A stretch of 64,000 nt of DNA. Origin: Gammaproteobacteria bacterium (GTDB lineage Bacteria; Pseudomonadota; Gammaproteobacteria; Eutrophobiales; Eutrophobiaceae). Under the pieces are notes generated by a model, which did not search any database, had not been told where the DNA came from, and saw only the letters and a list, made by a program, of their open reading frames with translations. The stretch covers positions 933,239 through 997,238 of the forward strand of contig OZ253477.1 of assembly GCA_965261775.1 (NCBI GenBank), in the 5' to 3' direction. This document shows positions 18,411-50,386 of the stretch, in pieces; the first letter of the stretch is position 1, and every line of letters begins with the position of its first letter. A program made the translations under genes and the position numbers.

Positions 18411-19085
18411 ATGAAACGTATTCCCGAACCCGAGTTGATGACCGAAACGGCGCAGGCAGCAGCCTATGCCAATGCGGATTTTGAGGAGCCGCACAGTCAT
18501 TTCATCACATTACTAAAAGACAGGATCGGCCGTTATTTGCCTGAATCGGGCCGGGCGGTTGATTTGGGCTGCGGCGCGGCGGACATCAGTATCCGTTTTG
18601 CCAGGGACTGGCCACGCTACCATATTGATGCGCTGGATGGCGCTTCCGCCATGCTGGCGGAGGCCCGTAAAGCACTCGCTGGTTCGGGTTTAACGGATCG
18701 AATTACCCTGATTGAGACCGGTATCAATGTTTCGTCACTCACGGAGCGGAATTACGATCTGATATTGAGCAACAGCCTGTTGCATCATCTGCATGATCCG
18801 ATGGTATTGTGGGAAACCATCAGGAACGCCGACGGGGCACCATACGTTTTCATTATGGATTTAATGCGCCCGGAAAATCAGACCCGGGTTGATGAGTTGC
18901 TGAACAAATATGCCGGAAATGAACCCGGGATATTACAACGCGATTTCGGCAATTCGTTGAGGGCGGCCTTTACCCCGGAGGAGGTCGAATCCCAGCTAAG
19001 TGCGGCCGGATTGGAAAAGTTAGGGGTTTCCGTTGTATCCGACCGTCACTTTATTGTCAGCACCCCGGGGCAAGTTCCGGATTAA
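18411..19085 (+). CDS. class I SAM-dependent methyltransferase
   Basis: VDLGCGAADIS motif I, 224 aa. Confidence 0.7.
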   Translation: MKRIPEPELMTETAQAAAYANADFEEPHSHFITLLKDRIGRYLPESGRAVDLGCGAADISIRFARDWPRYHIDALDGASAMLAEARKALAGSGLTDRITLIETGINVSSLTERNYDLILSNSLLHHLHDPMVLWETIRNADGAPYVFIMDLMRPENQTRVDELLNKYAGNEPGILQRDFGNSLRAAFTPEEVESQLSAAGLEKLGVSVVSDRHFIVSTPGQVPD

Positions 19086-20092
19086 GCCAAAGCCTCTTTT
19101 GTCGTCTTGACAATGACAGCCGCGACCTTGTAGGGGTCTGCATTGGAAGCGGGACGGCGATCTTCAAGACGTCCCTTCCAGCTATTCTCCACCGTGGCGA
19201 CCGGAATACGAATTGACGCGCCGCGATCAGATACACCGAAACTGAACTGCTCAATGGATTGCGTTTCATGTCTGCCGGTGAGCCGTTTTTCATTCTCGGC
19301 GCCATAAACCACGATATGACGTTCAATATTCCTGCCAAACGCCTCACAGATACTGGTAAAGACATCCTCACCGCCTGATTCACGCATAAAGCCGTTCGAG
19401 AAATTCGCATGCATACCCGAACCGTTCCAGTCAGCGTCTCCGAGCGGCTTCGGATGCCATTCAATGGCCAGTCCGTATTTCTCCGCAGTGCGTTCAAGCA
19501 GATAGCGGGCCAGCCAAGTCTGGTCACCGGCGCTTTTCGCGCTCATGGCAAATACCTGAAATTCCCACTGACCTGCCGCTACCTCGGCGTTAATACCCTC
19601 TATATTAAGGCCGGCCTCAATACAAAGATCAAGGTGTTCTTCAACGACTTCCCGGCCATAGGCGTTATTGGCACCGACAGAACAATAGTACGGTCCTTGC
19701 GGGCGCGGATAGCCCGCATGCGGGAAGCCGGGCGGCAAATTGATGTTGGGATCCCACAAAAAGTATTCCTGTTCAAAACCAAACCAAAAATCATCATCTT
19801 CGTCATCAATGGTTGAGCGCCCGTTTGATTCGTGCGGGGTACTATCGGCATTCAGTACCTCCGCCATCACAAGATAACCGTTTTTACGATCCGGGTCGGG
19901 AATAATCGCAACCGGCTTTAACAAACAATCGGAAGCGCCGCTATCCGCCTGTTGGGTGGAACTGCCGTCAAAGGACCATATCGGACAGTCTTCCAGTTCG
20001 CCAGAAAAATCCGATATTATCTGTGTTTTACTACGCAGGCTCTGGGTAGGTCTATACCCGTCAAGCCATATATATTCGAGTTTACTTTTCAT
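19082..20092 (-). CDS. glnII: glutamine synthetase type II (eukaryote-like GSII)
   Basis: KLEYIWLDGYRPTQSLRSKTQI...WSFDGSSTQQA...DCLLKPVAIIPDP...FGFEQEYFLW, near-identical in pattern to rhizobial GlnII. 336 aa. Confidence 0.88.
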   Translation of the reverse strand: MKSKLEYIWLDGYRPTQSLRSKTQIISDFSGELEDCPIWSFDGSSTQQADSGASDCLLKPVAIIPDPDRKNGYLVMAEVLNADSTPHESNGRSTIDDEDDDFWFGFEQEYFLWDPNINLPPGFPHAGYPRPQGPYYCSVGANNAYGREVVEEHLDLCIEAGLNIEGINAEVAAGQWEFQVFAMSAKSAGDQTWLARYLLERTAEKYGLAIEWHPKPLGDADWNGSGMHANFSNGFMRESGGEDVFTSICEAFGRNIERHIVVYGAENEKRLTGRHETQSIEQFSFGVSDRGASIRIPVATVENSWKGRLEDRRPASNADPYKVAAVIVKTTKEALA

Positions 20093-23988: not shown

Positions 23989-24804
23989 ATGCCCGCTTTA
24001 CAGCATTATTTTACAGAATATGAAATCATCATCAGGTTAAGCTGTTTCTGCCTGTTATTGTCGCTTTTTCTGCTACTGGAACTCAAATGCCCGCGCCGGA
24101 TATCGGCACCCGGCACGATACGGCGACGCTTCAATAATCTTGGTTTAATGTGCATTAATGTATTGGCAATCCGTCTAATCGTACCGTTTGCCGCCGTTGA
24201 AACTGCGATATTGGCCGCCCGGAATGAGACGGGGCTATTCAATCTATTATCATTGCCGTTTGCGGTGAATGTCCTGATAACCGTTGTCCTCTTTGACCTG
24301 TTAATCTATCTGCAGCATGTTGCCTTTCACAAAATCCCGATATTATGGCGAATACACAGGGTGCACCATACAGATGATCATGTCGATGTCACAACCGGTA
24401 TACGTTTTCATCCTTTTGAAATTTTCTTGTCCATGGCGTATAAATCAGGCGCTGTTTATTTGCTCGGACCCGCCGCCTTTGCGATCATGCTGTACGAGAT
24501 ACTGTTAAGCATGGCGGCGCTATTCACACACAGCAATATTCTATTGCGGCAAAACGTTGATCTGGCTTTGAGAAGCATCTTTGTAACGCCGGATATGCAC
24601 TGTATACACCATTCGGTGGTGCGGACGGAAACGGATAGCAACTACGGCAATCTGTTTTCATGCTGGGATAAATTATTCAAAACATATCGATCAATGCCCG
24701 CTGCCGGTTATAATAATATATTGATCGGCTTAAATGAGTTTCGCGATCAATCATCAAACCGTTTATTTCAATTACTGAAAAACCCTTTTTTGTTTAACAG
24801 GTGA
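23989..24804 (+). CDS. fatty acid hydroxylase / sterol desaturase superfamily membrane protein
   Basis: Three His boxes (HVAFH, HRVHHTDDH, HCIHH) on a hydrophobic protein. Confidence 0.75.
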   Translation: MPALQHYFTEYEIIIRLSCFCLLLSLFLLLELKCPRRISAPGTIRRRFNNLGLMCINVLAIRLIVPFAAVETAILAARNETGLFNLLSLPFAVNVLITVVLFDLLIYLQHVAFHKIPILWRIHRVHHTDDHVDVTTGIRFHPFEIFLSMAYKSGAVYLLGPAAFAIMLYEILLSMAALFTHSNILLRQNVDLALRSIFVTPDMHCIHHSVVRTETDSNYGNLFSCWDKLFKTYRSMPAAGYNNILIGLNEFRDQSSNRLFQLLKNPFLFNR

Positions 24805-24809
24805 ATATT

Positions 24810-25928
24810 ATGGACCAGGAAAATGCCGTCTTGAAACGTTATTCGGAAGGTGCCAACGAGCGTCAGCCGTCGCTATGCTGTCCGGTTGATTACCAAACGG
24901 AATTACTTGAATTATTACCGAAAGAAATCATTGAAAAGGATTATGGCTGCGGCGACCCGTCGCGGTATATCCGTGAAGGCGACAGGGTGCTGGACCTGGG
25001 CAGTGGCAGCGGCAAGATATGCTATATGGCCGCCCAGCTTGTCGGTAATGAAGGCCGGGTAACCGGTGTTGACATGAATGATGATATGCTGGCGCTTGCC
25101 AGAAAATACCAGGCAGAGATGGTGACTAAACTGGGCAATGATCGGGTCGAATTCAAAAAAGGCAAAATCCAGGACCTTGCCCTGGACATCGCCGCACTGG
25201 AAATGCGGTTGGCGGAAAATCCGGTCAATACGATTGGCGATCTGGAAGCCCTGGAGCACTGGAAAAAAAGTCAATGCGTTGATGCGCCCCTGATCCCGGA
25301 CAACTCGACTGATCTGGTGATATCAAACTGTGTCCTGAACCTGGTCAATGGCGCAGACAAGCAAAAACTGGTCAGTGAAATTTTTCGCGTACTGAAGCCC
25401 GGCGGACGGGTGGCGATTTCCGATATTGTCTCGGACGAATTTGTCCCCGAACATCTCAAGGCCGATGAGCAGCTCTGGAGCGGTTGTATCTCTGGCGCCT
25501 TTCAAGAACAGGAAATGCTTGATATGTTTCAGCAGGCCGGTTTCCTCGCCATCGCCTATGACAAATGGCAGGATGAACCATGGCAGGTGGTTGAAGGCAT
25601 CGAATTTCGCTCCGTCACGCTCACGGCGGTCAAGCGTGAGCAGGTCGACTGCATCGACAAAGGTCATGCGGTGATCTATCGGGGACCTTTCAATTTTGTG
25701 ACGGATGAGGAAGGCCATGAATTCCCGCGAGGCGAGAGGATGGCCGTTTGCGAGCGTACTTTTAATGTACTCACACAGGAACCTTACAAGGACTGCTTTA
25801 TCGGCATTACTCCGGCAAAAGCCCGGAAACCACGTCCGTGGTGCGCCCCACCCGGCACAAAAAGATCGGTAGCGGAAACAAAACACGGTGTCCACAGCGT
25901 GAGTGCAAATGATTCGTCCTGTTGCTGA
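24810..25928 (+). CDS. ArsM-like (arsenite methyltransferase family) SAM-dependent methyltransferase
   Basis: LKRYSEGA...LCCP...DYGCGDP...VLDLGSGSGK...VTGVDMNDDMLALARKY...VISNCVLNL aligns with the ArsM core. The start is coupled to the upstream gene (GTG/ATG overlapping its stop). Confidence 0.6.
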   Translation: MDQENAVLKRYSEGANERQPSLCCPVDYQTELLELLPKEIIEKDYGCGDPSRYIREGDRVLDLGSGSGKICYMAAQLVGNEGRVTGVDMNDDMLALARKYQAEMVTKLGNDRVEFKKGKIQDLALDIAALEMRLAENPVNTIGDLEALEHWKKSQCVDAPLIPDNSTDLVISNCVLNLVNGADKQKLVSEIFRVLKPGGRVAISDIVSDEFVPEHLKADEQLWSGCISGAFQEQEMLDMFQQAGFLAIAYDKWQDEPWQVVEGIEFRSVTLTAVKREQVDCIDKGHAVIYRGPFNFVTDEEGHEFPRGERMAVCERTFNVLTQEPYKDCFIGITPAKARKPRPWCAPPGTKRSVAETKHGVHSVSANDSSCC

Positions 25929-27271: not shown

Positions 27272-27808
27272 TCAGGCAGCAAGTATCTCATTAACGAATG
27301 ACGCCAGATCATCGTATACTGGTATCCCCTCGGCAACTTGACCACTATCGATCTCACTTTGCCCCTCGCCGGTGCGTACCAGTATCGGTTTACCTCCGGC
27401 GCTTTGTGCGGCACGGATATCAATCATTTGGTCGCCGACGCAAAATACCTTGTTCAGAGGTACCCGCAATCTTTCTGATATCCGGTTATAAAGGCCGGGA
27501 TTGGGTTTGCGGCAACTGCAATGATTTCCCGGCGTGTGCGGACAAAAGAAGATGGCGTCAATTTTGCCGCCATGCTGCGCCAGGATGGCGTTCATCTTGA
27601 TATGGATCGCATTAAGGTCATCAACGGTAAATAATTTGCGACCAAGGCCAGACTGATTGGTGGCGACGACGACTTGATAACCGCTCTGGGAAAGCGTGGC
27701 AATGGCTTCAAGACTCCCGGGGATGGCCTGCCATTCATCCGGCGATTTGATATATTCGTCCGATTCTTTATTGATCACGCCGTCGCGACCAAGAATGATT
27801 AGCGCCAT
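27272..27808 (-). CDS. gmhB: D-glycero-beta-D-manno-heptose-1,7-bisphosphate 7-phosphatase (HAD-IIIA)
   Basis: ILGRDGVIN (DxDGT-type), Zn-site CPHTPGNHCSCRKP. 178 aa. Confidence 0.88.
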   Translation of the reverse strand: MALIILGRDGVINKESDEYIKSPDEWQAIPGSLEAIATLSQSGYQVVVATNQSGLGRKLFTVDDLNAIHIKMNAILAQHGGKIDAIFFCPHTPGNHCSCRKPNPGLYNRISERLRVPLNKVFCVGDQMIDIRAAQSAGGKPILVRTGEGQSEIDSGQVAEGIPVYDDLASFVNEILAA

Positions 27809-29904
27809 TATCGCCTCCGCAACTTTGAGATATCGGCAATATCCAGAAATAACGCCTTCACCTTGCGAAGCAAGGCCAGGCGATTGTTTTTAATATCCTG
27901 TTCGTCGCACATTACCATCACATCATCAAAAAAAGTATCCACATTTTCACGCAGGGCCGCCAGTTCTGTCAGCGCCGCCCTGTAATCAAAGCGGTCTATC
28001 AGGGGTTTTGCACGCCGTTGACATTTTTCCAGCGCGTCGGCCAGCCCGGATTCGGCCTTTTCAACAAACAATGATGCACACGGTTCGTGTCTCTCAACTG
28101 CATCAGACTTTTCCAGAATGTGACTGATACGTTTGTTCATGGTGATCAGATCTCCCGCCTCGGCTGCCTCGCTGAATTCGGCAACAGCGCACAGGCGTTT
28201 ATCAAAATCAGTCAGGCGGGTGACGGAAACAGCGTGCACGGCCTCAAATATATCAGGTTCAATGCCCTTATCAATATAATAATGACGCAAACGCTCCATT
28301 AAAAAACAGGAGATCTTTCCCGGAAGTTCGGGCGTTCCCGCTCCAGGCAGGGTGTCTCCATGCACTCGCCTGTAACTTTCTCCGGCGATCTGAATCAGTC
28401 GCCTAATATCAATATCAAGGCCTCCTTCTATGCCGATACGCAGAAGACCGATGGCAGCGCGACGTAACGCGAACGGGTCTTTATCGCCCGTCGGCACCTT
28501 GTCAATAGCAAACATCCCGACCAGGGTATCAATCTTTTCCGCCAGCGCCAGACACTGACCGATATTCGTCATCGGCAATACATCACTGGCAAAACGCGGT
28601 CGATAAAATTCTCCCAGCGCGTGCGCGATTTCAGCTGATTCACCCGCCGCTTCCGCATAATAACGACCCATCACACCCTGCAATTTGGGAAACTCGCCCA
28701 CCATCTCCGTCAGCAGATCGCAGAAACACAGTTCAGCGGCACGAGTGGCCTTTTGCCGATCAAGATCAGTGAGGTCTGCCAACGAGTCCATGGTCTTTAT
28801 CAGACGTTGCGATCTGTCATGAAGCGTCCCTAGCTGTTCCTGATAAACTACTCCCGCCAGCCCTGACAGATGGCTCGCCAAACCCTTTTGCAGGTCGCGC
28901 TCCCAGAAAAAAGCGGCATCGCCGAGACGTGGCTGTATCACACGCTCATTGCCTTGCTTAATCAGTTGCGGATCCCTGCTCTTGATGTTGGCAACGCCAA
29001 TAAAATACGGTAACAATTTCCCCCTGTCGTCAACGACGGGAAAATATCGCTGGTGTTCCTGCATACTTGCAATCAGGACTTCCCGAGGCAGTTTCAGAAA
29101 ATCCGGATCAAAGTTGCCGATAAAGGCCTGTGGCCATTCGAGCAAGGCAGTCACTTCATCCAGCAAAGCCGGTTCAATGAGGGCGCGGGCTTTATTGTCA
29201 GCGGCAAGCGTCTCAAGCTGAGATACTATCGTGTCCCGACGCACGTCAAAATCAGCCAGCACCCTGCCGGTCTGTTTCAATATGTCGGGATAGTCAGCGG
29301 GCTTTTTGACGGGTATTGCACCCGGATGATGGACGCGATGCCCATAACTGTTTGTCCCGGACTTCACGCCCAGTATTTCACAATCAATCGGCATATCACC
29401 GAACAGGACCAGCACCCATTTTACCGGTCGTATGAATTCAAAATCATTATCACCCCAGCGCATCCGTTTCATGACGGGGACACGCTTCAGGGCGGTTTCA
29501 ATCATGAGCGGTATCAGTTCCGCCGCCGTTCTGCCCTTAATAAGGGCGTTAAAACTCAACCAGCGGCCTTTTTCCGTCTCCAGGGTTTCCAGTTGGTCGA
29601 CCCTCACGCCGCAGGATTTTGCAAAACCTTCAGCGGCATCCGTGAATTTGCCGTTTTCATCAATGGCCTTGTCCAGGGACGGACCACGCCGGAGCTGTTG
29701 CCTGTCTGCCTGCTTTATTGCAAGTCGTTTGACCAGCAATGCCAGCCGGCGTGGCGTGGCATACCATTTGATCCCCTCGTGTTCGAGCCCCTGTTCAAGC
29801 AGAAACGCCGCACTCTCTTCCTTAAAGGCTGTGGCAACCCGTTTCAGTGAGGTCGGCGGCAGCTCTTCGGAACCAATCTCAATCAACAGATCTCTTGCGC
29901 TCAT
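27808..29904 (-). CDS. glyS: glycine--tRNA ligase beta subunit
   Basis: MSARDLLIEIGSEELPPTSL matches the GlyS N-terminus. The longer upstream ORF (to 30048) overlaps glyQ and is rejected. Confidence 0.9.
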   Translation of the reverse strand: MSARDLLIEIGSEELPPTSLKRVATAFKEESAAFLLEQGLEHEGIKWYATPRRLALLVKRLAIKQADRQQLRRGPSLDKAIDENGKFTDAAEGFAKSCGVRVDQLETLETEKGRWLSFNALIKGRTAAELIPLMIETALKRVPVMKRMRWGDNDFEFIRPVKWVLVLFGDMPIDCEILGVKSGTNSYGHRVHHPGAIPVKKPADYPDILKQTGRVLADFDVRRDTIVSQLETLAADNKARALIEPALLDEVTALLEWPQAFIGNFDPDFLKLPREVLIASMQEHQRYFPVVDDRGKLLPYFIGVANIKSRDPQLIKQGNERVIQPRLGDAAFFWERDLQKGLASHLSGLAGVVYQEQLGTLHDRSQRLIKTMDSLADLTDLDRQKATRAAELCFCDLLTEMVGEFPKLQGVMGRYYAEAAGESAEIAHALGEFYRPRFASDVLPMTNIGQCLALAEKIDTLVGMFAIDKVPTGDKDPFALRRAAIGLLRIGIEGGLDIDIRRLIQIAGESYRRVHGDTLPGAGTPELPGKISCFLMERLRHYYIDKGIEPDIFEAVHAVSVTRLTDFDKRLCAVAEFSEAAEAGDLITMNKRISHILEKSDAVERHEPCASLFVEKAESGLADALEKCQRRAKPLIDRFDYRAALTELAALRENVDTFFDDVMVMCDEQDIKNNRLALLRKVKALFLDIADISKLRRR

Positions 29905-29917
29905 TGAATGGTCTGTG

Positions 29918-30841
29918 TTATTTCTGCAACAGGGGAAAACCCAATGCCTCGCGGCTTGCATAGTAGGCTTTGGACACCGCACGCGCCAGCGATCTGACCC
30001 GCAGGATATAAGCCTGGCGTTCAGCAACTGAGATGGCATTACGCGCATCCAGCAGATTAAAATAATGCGACGCCTTCATCGTCATTTCGTAGGCGGGCAG
30101 GGGCAGACTGGCCTCAATCAGATGTTGCGCTTCCCGCTCGCAGGTTTCAAACCAGTTAAACAGGTATTCCGTCTCCGCCAGGTCGAAATTATAACGCGAC
30201 ATCTCTACTTCGTTCTGATGATAAATATCAGCGTAGCTTACCGTCTTATTGTCGGGTTGCGCCCAGATCAGTTCATAGACATTACCGCAATCCTGCAGGC
30301 ACATGGCGATGCGCTCCAAACCATAGGTTATCTCGCCGCTGACGGGTTTGCAGCGCAGACCACCGACCTGCTGAAAGTACGTGAACTGGCTGATCTCCAT
30401 CCCGTCCAGCCAGACCTCCCAACCGAGTCCCCAGGCGCCGAGGGTAGGCGATTCCCAGTTGTCTTCCACAAAGCGAATATCATGCATTTCCATATCAATA
30501 CCAATGGCTTCCAACGACGCCAGATAGCGGTCCTGAATGTCATCGGTAGAGGGCTTTAACAGCACCTGAAACTGATAGTAGCGTTGCAGGCGATTGGGAT
30601 TTTCACCGTAACGACCATCGCCCGGACGACGCACAGGCTGCACGTAGGCCACGCGCCAGGGTTCGGGACCAATGGTGCGCAGGAATGTCGCCGGGTGAAA
30701 AGTGCCGGCGCCCATTTCCATGTCATAAGACTGAACGATAACGCAACCACAATCCAACCAGTAGTGTTGCAACCTGAATATTAATTCCTGGAAGTTCAGA
30801 CCAGCGCCGGAAAGTGCTTTTGCTTTTTTATTATGAGACAT
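29918..30841 (-). CDS. glyQ: glycine--tRNA ligase alpha subunit
   Basis: [27 protein letters not shown]...[16 protein letters not shown]. 307 aa. Confidence 0.93.
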
Positions 30842-38197: not shown

Positions 38198-39643
38198 TCA
38201 GAGTGGTGCCGGTAAATCGCTCTCCCCCATCAGGAATTTGTCAATGCCTCTAGCCGCGCTTCTGCCTTCCGCAATTGCCCAGACAATAAGGCTTTGCCCG
38301 CGATGCACATCGCCAGCGGCAAAGACACCTTCCACACTGGTCTGCCATGTTTCCGGATCGACTATCATATTGCCCCGTTCATCCAGATCAAGCGCAAGCT
38401 GATTAATCATGCCCGGTTGTTCCGGACCGGTGAAACCCATCGCCAGCAAGGCAAGATCGCAGGGCAACTCCCGTTCACTGCCTGTCACTTCTTCAAAACC
38501 GACGCGATTGCCCTCTTTCTTTAACGCGACTTCTATCAGACTCAGCGCCTTCACATTACCCTGTCCATCGTCAATAAACCGTTTGGTAGAAACCGAATAA
38601 ACCCGTTCCACGCCTTCTTCATGGGCCGAAGCGGTTCGGTAAATATCAGGCCATTCGGGCCAGGGGTTGTCCGCCGCACGAACGGTGGGCGGCTTCGGCA
38701 TAATTTCCAGTTGATGCACGGTTTCACAACCTTGTCTATTGGCAGTACCCAGGCAATCCGCCCCGGTATCGCCACCGCCGATAATCACGACATGTTTTCC
38801 CTCTGCACTGATAAAGTCAGCCGGTCTGTCATCACCTTCACAAAGGCGATTCTGCATAGGGAGATACTCCATCGCCTGATGGATACCGTTCAGTTCCCGA
38901 CCCGCTATCGGCAGATCGCGAGCCGCGCAGGCGCCGCAGGTCAGCAACAACACATGATAATCCTCCCTGAGTTCGGCGACGGAGATGTTTTTGCCGACAT
39001 GGGCTTTGGTCCTGAATTTCACGCCTTCGACCAACAGTTGTTCAAGACGACGGTCAAGCAATCTTTTTTCCATTTTGAATTCGGGGATACCGTAACGTAG
39101 CAGACCGCCGATACGATCGTCACGTTCAAATACCGTAACATCGTGCCCAGCCCTGACAAGCTGTTGCGCGGCGGCCAGTCCAGCGGGGCCGGAACCAATA
39201 ACGGCGACGGTCTTGCCGGTTTTTTTCTCCGCTATGATCGGTTTGACCCAACCATTTTCCCAGGCTTTGTCAATGATGGAAACTTCAACCGCCTTGATCG
39301 TCACCGGGTCATCATTAATGCCCAGAACGCAGGAACCCTCACACGGCGCTGGACATAAAACGCCGGTAAATTCAGGGAAATTGTTTGTGGCGTGCAAACG
39401 CTGAATAGCGTCATACCATTGGTCCTGATAGATCAGATCGTTCCAGTCCGGGATAAGATTCCCCAGAGGGCAGGCCTGATGGCAAAAGGGGATGCCACAA
39501 TCCATACAACGTGAGGCCTGGGTCTTTAATGGTTCAACCGGCCAGGGTTTAGTCACCTGCGTCCAGTCTTTCAGGCGCTCTTCCACCGGGCGATACGGCT
39601 GCGGCATGCGTTTCGCTTCCAGAAAACCCGTTATTTTACCCAT
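38198..39643 (-). CDS. gltD: glutamate synthase small (beta) subunit
   Basis: Fe-S Cys cluster CMDCGIPFC...CP and FAD/NAD Rossmann motif [10 protein letters not shown]. Confidence 0.92.
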
Positions 39644-42600
39644 GTGCCGCCTTCATGATAGCTTCATCAATTGATGCGCCTTCCTGCTTTGCTTTCTTGA
39701 TAGTTTCCAGCACCCGCCGGTAATCTCTTGGTATCACTTTGATGAAAGTGGATTGATACCCTGCCCAATCGTCAAGTATCTTTTGTGCTACCGTGCTTTG
39801 CGTGTAACGCAGATGCTTATTTAACAATGTCTTGAGGGTATCAATATCCTCCTCGTCCTCAACCCTTTCCAGATCAACCATCCCGTGGTTGCAAAGCACC
39901 GAAAATTCGTCTTTTTCCGCCAGCACATAAGCAATACCGCCTGACATACCAGCAGCAAAATTACGGCCGGTCTGACCGATAATCACAACCCGACCCCCGG
40001 TCATATATTCACAGCCATGGTCCCCGACGCCCTCCACAACAGCATTGACTCCGCTGTTGCGCACACAGAAACGTTCACCGGCGATGCCTCGAAATAGGCC
40101 TCACCACGGGTGGCACCGTAGAGCACAACATTGCCGATCAGGATGTTTTCTTCCGGGACGAACGAAGAATGGCGCGGCGGGTAGGACAATGATCCTGCCT
40201 CCAGACAGACCCTTGCCGATATAATCATTGGCGTCGCCTTCCAGCGTCAGCGTGACGCCCTTCGGCAGAAAAGCGCGAAACTCATACCGGCGGAACCGTT
40301 CAAATGGACGTTATCGTGTCTTCCGGCAGGCCTTCGGCACCATAACGTTGGGTAATGTGATAACCCAGTATGGTGCCAACGGCGCGGTCGGTATTTCCGA
40401 CAGGCAGGATAATATCGACCTTCTTTTATTCCCTGGAGCGCATCTTTGCACAGGGGACCAGTTTGGTCACATCAAGTGATTTTTCCAGGCCATGTCTTGT
40501 TCTTTAAACACAATACATTTTGTCGCCTGGGCTCGTTTTGCCTGATACAGGATTCTGGAAAAATCCAGACCACGCGCCTTCCAGTGGTGAATGGCCTTGC
40601 GCGTATCCAGCCTGTCACCCGACCAATCATCTCGTTCACGGGAGGAAACCGAGTCGGGCATATATTCGCGTACTTCTTCGGCGATATATTTGAAAAAATT
40701 TTCAACGAACCCGGCTTGCCAGAAAATTTTGCCGTCAGTTTCGGGTTTTGGGTCGCGATGCCCACCGTGCAGGTATTCAAATGGCAACGCGCATCATAAT
40801 ACAACCCATAACAACCAGCGGCGCGGTCGAGAAGCAGTATTCCTCCGCCCCCAGCAAGGCAGCGATGGTCACATCGCGTCCGGTTTCAACTGCCCATCGG
40901 TCTGCACGACGATGCGGTCGCGCAAACCGTTTTGAACCAGCACTTGTTGTGTTTCCCGCCAGACCGAGTTCCACGGCAAGCCCGCTGTTGCATCGTGAAC
41001 TCAGCGGGGAAGCGCCGGGGCCGCCGTCATAACCCGAAATCAGCACCACATCGGAATGCGCCTTGGCCACACCCGCAGCCACGGTACCGACCCCGGTTTC
41101 CGCAACCAGTTTCACATGGATACGTGCCCTGGGATTGGCATTCTTCAGATCATAAATCCAGTTGTGCCAGGTCTTCTATGGAATAGATGTCATGATGCGG
41201 CGGCGGCGAGATTACACCACACCGGGGTTGAGTGACGCACCCTGGCGATCCATGGATAGACCTTGGTGCCGGGCAATTGGCCGCCTTCGCCCGGTTTGGC
41301 GCCCTGCGCGATCTTGATTTGAATATCATCGGCATTTACCAGATATCGCTGGTAACGCCAAAACGCCCGGAGGCCACCTGTTTGATCGCACTGCGTCTTA
41401 AATCGCATTGGCATCCGGCGTAAAGCGATCCAGATCTTCACCGCCTTCACCAGTATTTGACTTGCCGCCAATGCGGTTCATGGCAATGGCCAGTGTTTCA
41501 TGCGCCTCTTTGCTGATGGAGCCGTAAGACATCGCGCCGGTTGAAAAACGTTCCACGATGCTGTCAATAGATTCAACCTCTTCTATAGGGATCGGCTCTT
41601 TGGCGAAACGAAAACGAAAAGCCTCTCAAGGTAGCAAGGTGCTCGTGCTGTTCATCCACCTTTGCGGTGTATTCCTTGAAAATCCTGTACTGTCCCGAAC
41701 GAGTCGCGTGCTGTAATTTGAAAACCGTTTCAGGATTGAACAGGTGATATTCTCCATCCCGGCGCCATTGATATTCACCGCCCCATTCCAGTTCGGCTCT
41801 TTTGACCACGCGCTCGGGAAAGGCGTTATGGTGCCGCAAACCGACTTCCTCCGCGACGACATCAAGACCGATACCGCCTATATTTGAGGCAGTCCAGCAG
41901 AAGTATTTATCGACAAATTCCCGATCCAGGCCAATCGCTTCAAAAATCTGTGCGCCGCGATAAGATTGAATGGTGGAAATACCCATTTTGGCCATCGTCT
42001 TGATCAAACCCTTATCAGCAGCCTTGATGAAGTTCTGTACGCTTCATCGTGCTTCATCTGCGACGGGAGGTAGCCCTGTCAATCAGATCGGCCAGCGATT
42101 CAAAGGCAAGATAGGGGTTGATACAGCCCGCGCCGTAACCCAGTAAAACGGCAAAGTGATGCACCTCCCTCGGTTCGCCAGACTCGAGTACGATGCTGAC
42201 CCTGGCGCGCGTACCTTGTCGAATCAGATGATGATGCAGACCGGCGACGGCAAGCAGTGCCGGTATCGGGGCCTTGTCACCATCAATATCACGGTCGGAG
42301 AGTATCAGATAGACAATGCCCGCCTTGACCAGTCTGTCCGCCTCGGCAAAAACACGTTGCAACGCAGCCTCCAGGCCAGCGCGCCCATCTGCAACCGGGT
42401 AGCTTATCGAAATTACTGTTGAGGTAAAACCGGGCGCGTCCATATCGCGAATACGCGCCAGCTCTTCATTGGTAATCAGGGGTGATTTAAGTTTGATCTG
42501 ACGACAGTGTAAGGGACCGACTTCCAACGGATTGCCTTCGGCGCCGATCGTTGAACCGATCTGTGTGACCAGTTCTTCACGGATACCATCCAGCGGCGGG

Positions 42601-44180
42601 TTAGTGACCTGCGCGAAGAGTTGTTTGAAGTAATCGTACAGCAGACGTGACCGGTTTGACAAAACGGCCAACGCGGCATCGGTACCCATGGAACCGATAG
42701 CTTCGGCACCCGTTCCCGCCATCGGCGCCATCAAAAGGCGCAGGTCTTCATGCGTATAACCGAATATCTGTTGACGCTGTAACAGGGTTTCATGATTGAG
42801 CCCCAAAGTTTGTTTTGGTAATGGCAGATTTTCGATGGGTTTCATGTTTTCTTTCAGCCACTGCCGATAAGGATGTTCAGCCACAAAGCGCCGCTTTAAT
42901 TCCTCATCGTCAATGATGCGGCCTTCATTGGTATCCACCATAAAGATACGCCCGGGATGCAGGCGTTCTTTTATACTGATATTTTCTGGCAGCACTTCCA
43001 GAACGCCCACTTCGGAAGCCATGATCACCATATCGTCCTTGGTCACGTAATAACGTGAAGGACGCAGGCCGTTTCTGTCCAGCACCGCTCCAATCACTTC
43101 TCCATCGGTGAATGCGATGGATGCCGGACCGTCCCAGGGCTCCATCAGGCAGGCGTGGTATTCATAGAACGCCTTGCGATCTTCATCCATGGTTTCGTGT
43201 CCGGCCCAGGCTTCCGGAACCATCATGAGCATGACCTGCGGTAAAGGCCGACCCGCCATGTGCAGAAATTCCATCACATTATCAAACATGGCGGAATCAC
43301 TGCCGCCTTCAATAACAATCGGAAAAAGTTTTTTCAGATCATCGCCAAACAGGTCGGAATCGCATAGGGCTTCACGGGCGCGCATCCAGTTGACATTGCC
43401 GCGCACGGTATTGATCTCGCCGTTGTGCGCGATATAACGGAACGGATGTGCCAGACGCCAGGAGGGGAAAGTATTGGTCGAGAAACGTTGATGTACCAGC
43501 GCCAGCGCGGATTCAACATCCGGAGCGCCGAGGTCGGGAAACATCGGTTCAATCTGCGGGCCAGTCAGCATGCCCTTATAGATAAAGGTGCGGCGGGAGA
43601 GCGATGCGACATAAAACAGATTTCGCTGCGACAGATCGGAATTCCATATCTCGTGTTCAACACGCTTGCGGATGACATAGAGTTTGCGCTCAAACGCGGC
43701 CGGGTCTATGGCGTCGTTTTTACTGATAAATATCTGCTTGAAATCAGGTTCGCTTTCTTTTGCGCTTGGGCCAAGCGCTGCGTCGTCGGTCGGCACATCA
43801 CGCCAGCCGAGAACGTGTTGATTTTCCTCTTTAACGATACGTTCGAATATTGCACGGCAGCGTTTTGACTGATCGGCGTCAACGGGGAGAAAGACCAGAC
43901 CGGCACCATATTTCTCCGTTTCAGGCAACTTGATACCGATTTCAGTACAGACGCGCCGGAAAAATTTATCTGGCTTCTGGATCAGTATACCGACACCATC
44001 GCCGGTGTTTTCCTCACAACCGCAGGCACCGCGGTGCAGCAGTTTTTTCAGAATGGTGAAAGCGTTATCAACAATCTTGTGGGATTTTCGGCCCTTTATA
44101 TCAACCACAAAACCGACGCCACAGGCATCGTGTTCTGTCGAAGGTTCATACAAACCGGCTTTTTCTATTATTTTCTGCAT
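39636..44180 (-). pseudogene. gltB: glutamate synthase large (alpha) subunit gltB. The N-terminal 708 aa and C-terminal 142 aa are intact, but the central 2 kb (about 40065-42054) carries at least six frameshifts
   Basis: MQKIIEKAGLYEPSTEHDACGVGFV... is the Ntn amidotransferase domain. GltB-homologous peptides ([46 protein letters not shown]) turn up in different frames. The total span of 4545 bp equals full GltB length. Confidence 0.8.
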
Positions 44181-46093: not shown

Positions 46094-46711
46094 ATGAGTA
46101 GGCACACGTCAAAATTGACGGGGAACTGGTTCAACCGTTTTGAATTTTCCCAGGGGGTAATGTCCATAAAACAGTTACCCGCCGACGTAGGTGGGGAAGT
46201 CGCCTTCGCTGGACGTTCCAATACCGGGAAATCAAGCGTCATCAATAAGTTAACCAACCGCAAGGGGTTGGCCAGAACCGGAAAGCGGCCTGGAAGGACA
46301 CGCGAAATCAATTATTTTTCCTGTGATCAGCACACGCATATTGTGGATTTACCCGGTTACGGTTATGCCGAAGTCAATGCCAGTTTACGGAATACATGGG
46401 CAACGTTGCTGGACTATTATCTGCGCGAACGACAGGCATTGCGGGGCATTTTTCTGATTATGGATATTCGTCGCCCACCGGGCAAGTTTGACCGACAGAT
46501 GCTGGATTATTGCCAGAACCGTGATCTGCTTTTACATATTTTACTGAATAAATCCGACAAGCTTTCACGAAGCGCAGGGGCAAAGGCCATGGAAAAGGTA
46601 AAAGAATGGGCGCCGGATAATACGAACACACAGCTTTTTTCCGCGCTTAAAGGCGATGGGGTGGAAACCGCCCGCACTAGACTCGCCACCTGGCTTTTTT
46701 CTGATAAATAA
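46094..46711 (+). CDS. engB: ribosome biogenesis GTPase YihA/EngB
   Basis: VAFAGRSNTGKSS G1 motif, DLPGYGY. Divergent from cytochrome c4 / dsbA as in pseudomonads. Confidence 0.9.
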   Translation: MSRHTSKLTGNWFNRFEFSQGVMSIKQLPADVGGEVAFAGRSNTGKSSVINKLTNRKGLARTGKRPGRTREINYFSCDQHTHIVDLPGYGYAEVNASLRNTWATLLDYYLRERQALRGIFLIMDIRRPPGKFDRQMLDYCQNRDLLLHILLNKSDKLSRSAGAKAMEKVKEWAPDNTNTQLFSALKGDGVETARTRLATWLFSDK

Positions 46712-46716
46712 AAAAA

Positions 46717-46760
46717 CGCCCCGGTTCTATAATTTTAGGGAAGGGGTTAGCAACCGGGGC
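46717..46760. terminator. 9-bp-stem hairpin flanked by an A-run (plus strand) / T-run (minus strand); functions best as a minus-strand terminator
   Basis: gccccggtt...aaccggggc. On the minus strand it is followed by GTTTTTTTATTT. Confidence 0.5.
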
Positions 46761-47078
46761 AACAAAATAACAACTAGTGTCATTATTATTCGCTAGGTGG
46801 GTAAGCGTTTATGTGTTTTTAGAGAATGTATCTCTCCAAGAGTTCCCTCAATTTTGAGTTTCCTCAATTTTAGCCTTTTTGAAAAAATTCATCCCCCTGC
46901 CCGGTGTCGTCAACGGTAAGAATACGACGTTTGAAAACAAGCCCTGCCGGAAAAATAAATTTTTTTTACAAGTCATTGATATAAATAATCTTTTTAAAAC
47001 TGGTTAATTTTTAGTAGTTTTGCGAATATGAGATAACCAAGCTATTTTTAGCTTCATATACGCATAACGTCCACAGAT

Positions 47079-47101
47079 TTATCCACAGAAAATGTGGATA
47101 A
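47079..47101. promoter_or_regulatory. inverted pair of perfect DnaA boxes (TTATCCACA-N5-TGTGGATAA) in a 440-bp AT-rich intergenic region
   Basis: Read directly. Both 9-mers match the canonical R-box consensus exactly. Confidence 0.7.
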
Positions 47102-47186
47102 AAAAATGCGCCGCATGGGCAAATAGTTAACCTGATAAAATTAGAATTAATATTAAGTTCAGCGACAAAAGAAAGCGATTTTCGGT

Positions 47187-48638
47187 TTAGTGAATCACTT
47201 TCAGCAGTTCATTTTTTTGCGGTTCTCCTTTCGGAAATTTTCCGTTCAACAACCGCAATTGGGGTTCGGCATTGGTCAACGGTGAACTCCGGGCCAGATC
47301 GGCAAAACGTGTTTTTTCATCGGCCTGCACGACATCGAGTCGTAACGGGACGGCCTGCTGCCGTTCATTTGGCGTCAGTTGGTGAAAACTTTTCGCCGTG
47401 TTTAGTATGATCTCGTCAAATTTTTTACGCTCATCCGCTTTCTTTGAGACACCGGCGATAATATAGGCGAGTTGCCTGAAGTAAATGACCGTAAAACGCG
47501 CCGGTTTTGGTCCCTGTTCGGTACTGACAACCGCAACGCCGGTATGGGCGTCCAGACCGTTGATCTTCAACGCCCGGTCATGACTCAAATTGCCAAAACG
47601 CTGGATCATAAAATCCCGGGGAGATACGTTTTTATCAGACGCTACCGCGCTGATCTGCATAAAGGCACGTCCATTGGGAGCAGTCAACATGATAGCCTCC
47701 TGCTGGTTTTTCACATACCAGTTTTCAGGAAGGATTATCGCGAAATCAAGCTCGGGATGCAAAAAACGCCGCCCCCGCACAAAGCCATCGGACGAACTAC
47801 CGCCAAAGACCATTCCATCGATCAGCGCCATATATCTTCCATGCCCGACATATTGCTTTTGCCCCGAAGTGCTAAAGGCGCGCGCCGTACCGACGACTTC
47901 CTGCAAACGCTTGTCATTATCCGGATGGGTCGAAAAAACACCATGATAGATATGCGGTTCGCGCCCTTCTTTTTTAGCCTGTTCCCGTTCGAAGATTTCC
48001 TGATCTTTCAATATACCGATGACATCCAGCATGGCATTCGGATCATAATTGGCTCTGGCAAGATATTCTGCCCCGAGGCGGTCGGCTTCCAGTTCATGCT
48101 GGCGACCGTAACCGCGCAATAATGCCGTACCGAAAAGCCGGCCTAGTTCAATGGACGCACGGTCCATGCCCGGAATGAGTACACTGCCGAGCACCAGACC
48201 AATACCAGTCATTGTCGAGGCACTGTACTGACGCACGGAATGACGCGCGGTAACATGACCAATCTCATGTCCGAGGATGGCGGCAAGTTCCGCTTCGGAT
48301 TTCAAATAGGCCATCAGTCCGCGGGTAATATAAATATAACCTCCCGGCAGAGCAAAGGCATTGACTTCCTTGCTGTCCAGCACAGTAAAACGATAGTCCA
48401 GATTGCGACGATGAGTGTTCGCGGCGAGGCGGTCGCCGATATCCTGAACATATTTCTGCAAGGCGGTATTGTTATAAACACCGTATTGATCAAGTATTTC
48501 CTGATGCGCCCTGTCTCCGAGGGCAATTTCCTCTCTTTCCGAGAGTAAAACCAGTTCCTGGCGCCCGCTGACAGGATTGACGGCGCAACCTTCAACGACA
48601 AAAATCAACGTGAAAAATAGCAGTTGTTTTCTGATCAT
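47187..48638 (-). CDS. M48-family zinc metallopeptidase lipoprotein with a C-terminal accessory domain
   Basis: HEIGHVTARH zinc motif, lipobox LIFVVEGCA. ATG at 48638 gives MIRKQLLFF... Confidence 0.75.
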   Translation of the reverse strand: MIRKQLLFFTLIFVVEGCAVNPVSGRQELVLLSEREEIALGDRAHQEILDQYGVYNNTALQKYVQDIGDRLAANTHRRNLDYRFTVLDSKEVNAFALPGGYIYITRGLMAYLKSEAELAAILGHEIGHVTARHSVRQYSASTMTGIGLVLGSVLIPGMDRASIELGRLFGTALLRGYGRQHELEADRLGAEYLARANYDPNAMLDVIGILKDQEIFEREQAKKEGREPHIYHGVFSTHPDNDKRLQEVVGTARAFSTSGQKQYVGHGRYMALIDGMVFGGSSSDGFVRGRRFLHPELDFAIILPENWYVKNQQEAIMLTAPNGRAFMQISAVASDKNVSPRDFMIQRFGNLSHDRALKINGLDAHTGVAVVSTEQGPKPARFTVIYFRQLAYIIAGVSKKADERKKFDEIILNTAKSFHQLTPNERQQAVPLRLDVVQADEKTRFADLARSSPLTNAEPQLRLLNGKFPKGEPQKNELLKVIH

Positions 48639-49306
48639 TAGTTTTGCGATACCGATGCCTGTTACATAATCATTATGCGCATTAATGTCCAAATCATGCC
48701 TTACACGCATGTGCATGTCGTCAATTGTTCGGGTAGTGTGACTCCGTTTTCTGGATTTAACCATAGCCCTGACTGATTGTCACCAATGCCCCGCATAAGA
48801 TGATAAAAAAATCACCCACACCGCAGATAAAGCCAAAAACCGGACTTGTTCAGGAACGCGGCATACTCCACAAGACCCGGCATTCGCCGCCAGCGGTATC
48901 ACAGGATGATGGCAATCAGTATGTGAAATATTGGGGACTACTTTACAAGGGTATTACCAATCTTTCGCGTAGCGTTTTCGCTGAATGCTGGCCACGTCTC
49001 TCAAAAAATGGCACTGGCGTGTGATCATGCACCATATCTTCCACTATCGTAGTGCAGACTGACACGTTTTATTGTGTCGTAGTCTCTCTGCAAATCTGCG
49101 CCGCCGCCGAAACGGCACCCGGTTTGGATATATTAATCCCCGGCAGGTAAATATAGTATCACCGTCAATGATGTCATCAACACAGGATATCGATCAATGC
49201 GATCTCCCACGCCATGGTCATGCCCTGCCAGGACGAAACCGGGCGTACACGGCAGAATACAGGCTGAAAAGGCTTAAAACCCGGAGGTATAAACGGGCAC
49301 GCGTCT

Positions 49307-49513
49307 TTATGAAGACATGCCGTATTTACGACGGAATTTATCAACCCGGCCGGCACTGTCCACCATTCTCTGCTTGCCGGTGTAGAAAGGATGGCATTCA
49401 GAGCAGACATCAAGATGCAACTCGCCTGTATAGGTGGAACAGGTTTTGAACGTGTTGCCGCAACTGCACCGTACTGTCACTTCCTGATAGGTCGGGTGAA
49501 TATCTGTTTTCAT
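49307..49513 (-). CDS. rpmE: 50S ribosomal protein L31
   Basis: [22 protein letters not shown]...[10 protein letters not shown]. 68 aa. Confidence 0.95.
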
Positions 49514-49615
49514 TTTAACTCCGGTTTCTTTGATATTTTATCGGCGGCGTATTTTATGTTAAAAAATCCTGCGGGGCAATACCATCCCCTGCATTTATTT
49601 TTCAAACGGTGTCTG

Positions 49616-50386
49616 TTACAGCAGAAATTCTGCAACTACCGGCGTATGGTCGGAAGGCCGTTCCAGTTTCCTCGGGGCTTTATCAATGTAGCAACCACGG
49701 CAAATCCTGACCAATGCAGCACTCGCCAGAATATGGTCGATTCTCAGACCGCGATTACGCCGGAATGCGGCAGCCCGATAATCCCACCATGAAAAACTCC
49801 GGGGTTCCTGTTCAAACAGACGGAAACAGTCACTCAGACCATGCTCCAGCATCTTTTGAAATTCCAGACGTTCAGCCCCGCTGACCAGCACACTGTCTTT
49901 CCATTCATCGGGGTCATGTACGTCCCGATCTTCCGGTGCAATATTGAAATCACCCAACACAATCAGACGGTCGTTATCCGCCTTTAAGTCGGCGATAAAC
50001 GGATGTAACTTGGAAAACCACTCCAGTTTATAGTGATATTTTTCCGAACCAGGTTCTGAACCGTTTGGAACATAAAGATTCAATATTGTCAGGCCGGCAC
50101 TTTTGACCGCCAGTACGCGCCGTTGCTCATCGACATAATCCGGCAGACGAGCGGCGATGTTTTCAACAGGTAATTTGCATAGTATGGCGACACCATTATA
50201 GGTTTTCTGACCGATAAAGCTCGCCTCGTAACCGGCTTTTCCAATGGCATCAAGCGGAAAATTGTCGTCCGTCAGTTTGGTCTCCTGTAATGCCAGCACA
50301 TCGGGCTGACAGGTCTTCAGCCATTGCAATACATGGGGAAGCCTGACCTTGAGCGAATTGACATTCCAAGTGGCGATCTTGAACAT
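49616..50386 (-). CDS. xthA: exodeoxyribonuclease III
   Basis: FKIATWNVNSLKVRLPHVL...LQETK is the EEP-fold nuclease signature. 256 aa. Confidence 0.92.
   Translation of the reverse strand: MFKIATWNVNSLKVRLPHVLQWLKTCQPDVLALQETKLTDDNFPLDAIGKAGYEASFIGQKTYNGVAILCKLPVENIAARLPDYVDEQRRVLAVKSAGLTILNLYVPNGSEPGSEKYHYKLEWFSKLHPFIADLKADNDRLIVLGDFNIAPEDRDVHDPDEWKDSVLVSGAERLEFQKMLEHGLSDCFRLFEQEPRSFSWWDYRAAAFRRNRGLRIDHILASAALVRICRGCYIDKAPRKLERPSDHTPVVAEFLL

Follow-up and report, generated by a model that had tools for sequence, protein, structure and literature searches.

A dense patch of single-base frameshifts in gltB of an uncultured gammaproteobacterium is most likely a local sequence error

The gene for the glutamate synthase large subunit (gltB) is deposited in this gammaproteobacterial contig with two readable ends and a middle that cannot be translated in one frame. 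The question is whether the organism has lost the enzyme or whether only the record is damaged. Taken at face value, the record would have an uncultured gammaproteobacterium scored as lacking glutamate synthase (GOGAT) and unable to run GS-GOGAT ammonium assimilation, and would also inflate pseudogene counts. The window (the whole stretch of DNA that was analysed, 64 kb) contains the locus in the following parts.

39636-44180, minus strand: gltB, glutamate synthase large subunit; 4542 nt plus stop, with start and stop in-frame
42081-44180, minus strand: intact 5' part of gltB; about 700 codons comprising GATase_2 and most of the central domain, 0 frameshift events
40093-42080, minus strand: damaged patch of gltB; 1988 nt, about 25 single-nucleotide indels
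39636-40092, minus strand: intact 3' part of gltB; about 150 codons plus stop, 0 events
38198-39643, minus strand: gltD, glutamate synthase small subunit; intact, 481 aa, overlapping the gltB stop

The gltB start was placed at the ATG at 44180 and the stop at 39636-39638. The span is a multiple of three, so both intact ends share a frame. Before any correction, the end fragments matched NCBIfam NF008730, the N-terminal fragment at model positions 3-692 and the C-terminal fragment at 1354-1483. The gene is adjoined by gltD, as expected of gltB, and the gltD product matched TIGR01317 over its full length (713 bits). The deposited gltB does not form a single ORF of about 1500 codons, and is broken by about 25 frame changes between 42080 and 40093. 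The ORF listing comprised an N-terminal ORF of 708 codons (42054-44180), a C-terminal ORF of 142 codons (39636-40064) and, between these, short ORFs only, in changing frames. The original prediction had given these two ORFs as uninterrupted ends and placed the damage at 40065-42054. Both ORFs are open as described, but the last 8 codons of the longer one are already off the homologous frame. The damage is likewise real in the deposited sequence and the limits needed adjustment: the first lesion lies at about 42080, just outside that interval, and in-frame homology on the 3' side runs from about 40092.

Lesions were mapped by alignment to intact orthologues. Plain tblastn with an intact orthologue returned gapped HSPs that overlapped in all three minus-strand frames, from which the breaks were not resolvable. 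It was replaced by a custom protein-to-DNA alignment permitting one-base frame changes. Intact GltB references were taken from a scan of species-representative genomes, which provided 53 loci with uninterrupted genes; the best of these, from Gammaproteobacteria MAGs, were 77% identical over the N-terminal part. Frameshift-aware alignment to the reference loci L001 and L002 gave 21 events (15 deletions, 6 insertions), all at 42080-40090. A profile of the 53 intact GltB proteins with a lower frameshift penalty gave 25 events (17 deletions, 8 insertions; net -9 nt) at 42080-40093. At two places, close to 41620 and to 41220, the alignment is open to either of two readings, two deletions or one insertion with a codon gap, and the count is accordingly 25 ± 2. 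The same isolated one-base gaps were present in a MAFFT nucleotide alignment with five orthologues. The claim that the centre of gltB is frameshifted while its ends and gltD are clean was borne out, with 21 to 25 one-base frame changes, all between 42080 and 40093. Homologous peptides had also been assigned to at least six minus-strand frames; one strand has three, and what is seen is many switches among them. The individual events, in the order in which they occur along the gene, are listed below.

42077-42083, minus strand: 1-nt deletion, first event (position ±3 nt); protein alignments
42036-42045, minus strand: 1-nt deletion; protein and nucleotide alignments
41602-41623, minus strand: 1-nt insertion or two deletions; T-rich variable linker, placement uncertain
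41403-41409, minus strand: 1-nt deletion (GG to G)
41344-41350, minus strand: 1-nt deletion (probably AA to A)
41216-41226, minus strand: net -2 nt; scored as a missing codon plus a 1-nt insertion, with C5 to C4 plus G3 to G2 fitting equally well
41155-41161, minus strand: 1-nt insertion (G to GG)
40983-40989, minus strand: 1-nt insertion, first member of a compensating pair
40967-40973, minus strand: 1-nt deletion (GGG to GG), compensating the insertion at 40983-40989
40953-40959, minus strand: 1-nt insertion (GG to GGG)
40880-40889, minus strand: 1-nt deletion (A run)
40785-40791, minus strand: 1-nt deletion (probably TTT to TT)
40708-40714, minus strand: 1-nt deletion, outside a homopolymer
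40654-40661, minus strand: 1-nt deletion
40641-40647, minus strand: 1-nt deletion, outside a homopolymer
40615-40621, minus strand: 1-nt deletion
40535-40544, minus strand: 1-nt deletion
40503-40509, minus strand: 1-nt insertion (TT to TTT), making the sole in-frame stop seen before correction
40493-40499, minus strand: 1-nt deletion, compensating the insertion at 40503-40509
40449-40460, minus strand: 1-nt deletion
40423-40430, minus strand: 1-nt insertion (T inside an A run)
40308-40314, minus strand: 1-nt deletion
40273-40279, minus strand: 1-nt deletion (GG to G)
40181-40188, minus strand: 1-nt insertion (C to CC)
40089-40096, minus strand: 1-nt deletion, final event

The compensating indel pairs that had been predicted are present, for example 40983-40989 with 40967-40973 and 40503-40509 with 40493-40499. 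A 23-residue peptide quoted as readable only after a shift of frame inside the ORF at 40777-41115 was found, as stated, to be out of frame there, between the insertion at 40956 and the deletion at 40883.

All 25 events are exactly 1 nt in size, and larger length differences from the orthologues are ordinary codon-level variation. Indels make up 1.26% of bases in the patch, at a mean spacing of 83 nt. Within gltB, no frame changes were detected in the 2.1 kb upstream of the patch or the 0.45 kb downstream; none were detected in gltD, and none in four control orthologous genes, each aligned to a profile built without it (leave-one-out). The degree of clustering was calculated on gltB alone, leaving out gltD and the remaining window. 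If the first and last events are used to set its bounds, the interval makes up 44% of the gene, and the chance of its also containing the remaining 23 is approximately (1988/4542)^23 = 6e-9.

This distribution bears on classical gradual pseudogenisation, in which gltB would have decayed because GOGAT had become dispensable to an organism with a genome of about 2.2 Mb. Such decay would account for the unreadable state of the deposited gene, and the genome is smallish. It is nevertheless very improbable, given that the lesions are confined to less than half of gltB with gltD left intact, and that nonsense substitutions, multi-base indels and loss of amino-acid conservation are all absent. Across gltB, the spread of lesions of varied sizes, with nonsense codons, that marks a decayed pseudogene was not found. 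A glutamine synthetase encoded elsewhere in the window (19082-20092, minus strand, 336 aa) is neutral on this point. It had been named as a co-resident glnII, of possible relevance to nitrogen assimilation. A glutamine synthetase is indeed present and matches the GlnII model NF041605 over its full length, but at 393 bits against a curated cut-off of 500 bits; the protein is classed by its sequence as GlnII-like, not as certified GlnII.

Reversibility of the damage was assessed by correcting the mapped events. Introduction of 25 single-base edits produced a gltB ORF of 1516 codons with 0 stops. The in-frame stop reported by a coarser alignment vanished once the indel pair at 40506 and 40496, 10 nt apart, was recognised. 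The corrected GltB contained four full-length Pfam domains: GATase_2 (20-441), Glu_syn_central (468-752), Glu_synthase (814-1179) and GXGXG (1261-1447). The patch spans the end of the central domain, the whole of the FMN-binding Glu_synthase domain and the first half of GXGXG. Removal of the indels thus restores a full, conserved and stop-free reading frame.

Conservation was then compared between the corrected patch and the intact parts. After correction, the patch shared 0.77-0.82 amino-acid identity with ten orthologues. The intact N-terminal part was 72-78% identical to the closest orthologues, i.e. below the patch. The ratio of patch to N-terminal identity was 1.04-1.11, against 1.03-1.18 between intact orthologues; by this ratio, there was no fall in amino-acid conservation relative to the orthologues that would indicate relaxed constraint in the patch. 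Among the alignment columns invariant in all 53 orthologues, the patch deviated at 7 of 228 and the flanks at 1 of 215 (Fisher p = 0.07). An indel lies within 8 nt of three of those seven columns, where the change could reflect an edge effect of the alignment or another minor error. Overall, the patch has an excess of no more than 6 changes at invariant residues. Any surplus of substitutions would thus be a few bases, compared with about 25 indels, which makes indels no rarer than substitutions. An indel to substitution ratio of 1 or more is the reverse of what spontaneous mutation in bacteria is generally understood to produce, which again speaks against gradual decay.

The same data were considered for the case in which the lesions are real and date from one recent event, such as a tract of error-prone repair synthesis or a gene conversion in which a decayed gltB paralogue at another genomic site served as donor. 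Under this scenario, gltB would be newly inactivated, with its ends and gltD yet to decay. The sharp edges of the patch and its intact flanks would be as expected, as would the slightly raised number of changes at invariant positions. Within the 64-kb window, tblastn found neither another gltB nor a repeat of the patch; a second copy is possible outside it. A decayed donor should, however, bring numerous substitutions as well as nonsense codons and indels of several sizes, whereas every event here is 1 nt and no stop is left after correction. The identity of the patch to its orthologues is also that expected of an intact gene. We know of no repair process that would place about 25 frameshifts within 2 kb while introducing few substitutions.

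Base composition and ancestry were examined for signs of a donor. GC content at each codon position in the patch matched the flanks and neighbouring genes (GC3 0.59 vs 0.51-0.59), and the same set of nearest relatives was recovered for patch and flanks, which counts against a decayed donor. Neither GC3 nor the ranking of nearest relatives gave any sign of a foreign origin or of a closer donor lineage. The suggestion that the block is a recombined decayed segment is not supported, there being no substitution load, no shift in GC3 and no closer lineage to supply it. A single recent event is on balance unlikely, while being a better candidate than gradual decay. Conspecific sequence was not found among GTDB species representatives, two protein searches and JGI metagenomes, in which best identities were 77-82%. 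The best match to the patch was 82% identical (protein search), the best JGI metagenome locus 79%, and the next-best GltD 81%.

Sequence context at the events was compared with that expected for random indels. Among the 22 assessable events, 16 could be placed in runs of at least 2 bases; for indels simulated at random, the share was approximately 48% (p = 0.017). These runs are short (two to four bases). Homopolymer content of the patch equals that of the clean flank, with six runs of at least 5 bases and none of at least 7. Homopolymers were considered as the cause of the localisation and rejected, as the enrichment at short runs is modest and the patch is no richer in homopolymers than the flank. 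The proposal of homopolymer errors thus finds weak support in the placement of events and none in the make-up of the patch. With a modest homopolymer link and short runs, the events do not resemble the long-homopolymer miscalls classically seen in polished nanopore or 454 data.

These positions also bear on recoding, by which gltB would be functional as written through multiple programmed frameshifts, transcriptional slippage or insertion/deletion RNA editing. The net length change is a multiple of three and the protein is conserved in each frame segment, both of which would fit. However, about 25 sites would be required, some only 10-16 nt apart. Most of them are at runs of 1-3 bases, and the patch, like the undamaged flank, offers no long run. 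No slippery motif or long homopolymer conserved in relatives was found at the shift sites in the patch. All 53 orthologues, including the closest at 77-82% identity, use one frame across the region, and to our knowledge insertion/deletion RNA editing is undescribed in bacteria. Recoding can be given almost no credence.

The lesions are single-base, tightly clustered and fully reversible, without decay at the protein level. A local sequencing or assembly error patch in an otherwise ordinary, functional gltBD operon is, with high confidence, the best reading of this sequence. The preference of the original prediction for an error patch over gradual pseudogenisation is upheld by the ±1 nt size of all events, their restriction to 2 kb, the ORF restored by 25 edits and the essentially undiminished conservation. 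Single-base indels dominate (25 of 25 events) and substitutions are few. We strongly infer, short of proof, that the origin is most likely in sequencing, assembly or polishing. The organism would then have a normal, working gltBD, and a poor consensus over about 2 kb would scramble the gltB frame on paper only. The statement that GOGAT as encoded is non-functional would accordingly apply to the deposited sequence and probably not to the organism.

In such an error patch, single-base indels left behind by the assembler or polisher would affect about 1.3% of bases, deletions outnumbering insertions two to one, and a further 0.5-0.8% might be substitutions. Together, these rates come close to those of one long read or of a long-read consensus of very low depth. 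The remaining approximately 60 kb of the window looks clean, so a special local cause must be assumed. Too few usable reads may have covered the patch, a segment of the assembly graph may have gone unpolished, or the consensus may have been disturbed by reads that belong to a paralogue or to a different strain. The slight excess of invariant-residue changes would also fit a small amount of real decay. In Trycycler benchmarking, errors in long-read assemblies comprised 44% insertions, 47% deletions and 9% substitutions (PMC8442456), and local spikes or clusters of errors were reported in some long-read assemblies (PMC8442456). Interrupted ORFs serve as an indicator of indel errors in MAGs (PMC9426551).

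The rest of the window was examined for further broken genes. Its approximately 60 kb is tiled by long ORFs. Thirty window ORFs were searched against Pfam, of which 21 (20 long, 1 short) gave ordinary domain matches, including Rho, GroEL, a LysA-type decarboxylase, GlyS, oligopeptidase A, ferrochelatase and HemB; the other nine were short and had no match. No other broken genes were found among these 30 ORFs. Short-ORF regions elsewhere in the window gave no Pfam match and no further frameshifted genes, a search by which small or novel genes are not judgeable.

Several features of the window were recorded in passing. A stretch of about 850 bp at 48773-49620 contains only short ORFs (83, 125 and 133 aa) without a Pfam match, and a 480-bp gap without a long ORF lies at 46711-47187. 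Neither Rfam families nor tRNA genes were found at these two places, and none at the gathering threshold across the whole 64 kb. The Pfam domain match of a SAM-dependent methyltransferase (24801-25928, plus strand, 375 aa) falls into two parts, residues 58-127 and residues 159-206, suggestive of an inserted segment in the methyltransferase domain of the predicted protein. The longest glyS ORF (27808-30048, minus strand, 746 aa) overlaps the upstream same-strand ORF at 29918-30841, presumed glyQ, by about 130 nt. The Pfam match of the glyS product does not begin until residue 54; translation therefore probably initiates at an internal codon, and the overlap does not point to a frameshift.

The GltD of the window is identical to a database protein (P0001), the sole member of its 90% protein cluster, which is encoded on one contig of 2,210,108 bp in NCBI/ENA. 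Exact-sequence look-ups with three window proteins and with P0001 revealed no independent assembly. A single contig of 2.21 Mb is typical of a long-read MAG. Split gltB genes were also seen in other long-contig MAG assemblies: that of ERZ25039531 contig_20410 (L081, 2436-6943) is split by one single-base frameshift, and that of ERZ25039469 contig_36523 (L082, 2272-6784) by four. Several more truncated GltB proteins on contigs longer than 200 kb were present among the protein search matches. Indel errors in long-contig MAG assemblies seem often to hit long genes such as gltB.

The main value of the locus is as a warning, and as a case in which an error patch and real decay are separable without reads, by size spectrum, clustering, reversibility and conservation. 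There is a very slim chance that the 25 indels are real, gltB having been freshly destroyed by a process that makes dense frameshifts with few substitutions, or being a 'cryptogene' repaired at the RNA or ribosome level. Lesions found to be true in the reads would be remarkable, because no known mutational or recoding process gives such a pattern.

Four known systems were used for comparison. In programmed frameshifting and slippage (prfB, dnaX and the poly(A) rescue of endosymbionts), the frame is likewise restored over a ±1 shift, but one or a few sites are used, at slippery motifs or long homopolymers, whereas gltB would need about 25, mostly at runs of 1-3 bases. Pseudogenes of host-restricted or niche-shifted bacteria likewise present a conserved housekeeping gene with frameshifts; true bacterial pseudogenes, however, carry substitutions, stops and deletions of varied size along the whole gene, and gltB has ±1-nt changes only, in one block, with conservation kept. 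Clusters of errors in long-read or hybrid assemblies, as revealed by IDEEL-type tests, are likewise made up of single-base indels with few substitutions and are locally clustered, and they fragment an ORF that single-base edits can restore. The density in gltB is unusually high by comparison, with 25 events in 2 kb versus none detected in the other approximately 60 kb. The locus otherwise has the domain order and adjacent gltD of the GltBD of Gammaproteobacteria, and its gltB is 77-82% identical to intact orthologues in Gammaproteobacteria and Thiotrichales MAGs. The only difference from the NADPH-dependent GltBD of Gammaproteobacteria is the indel patch.
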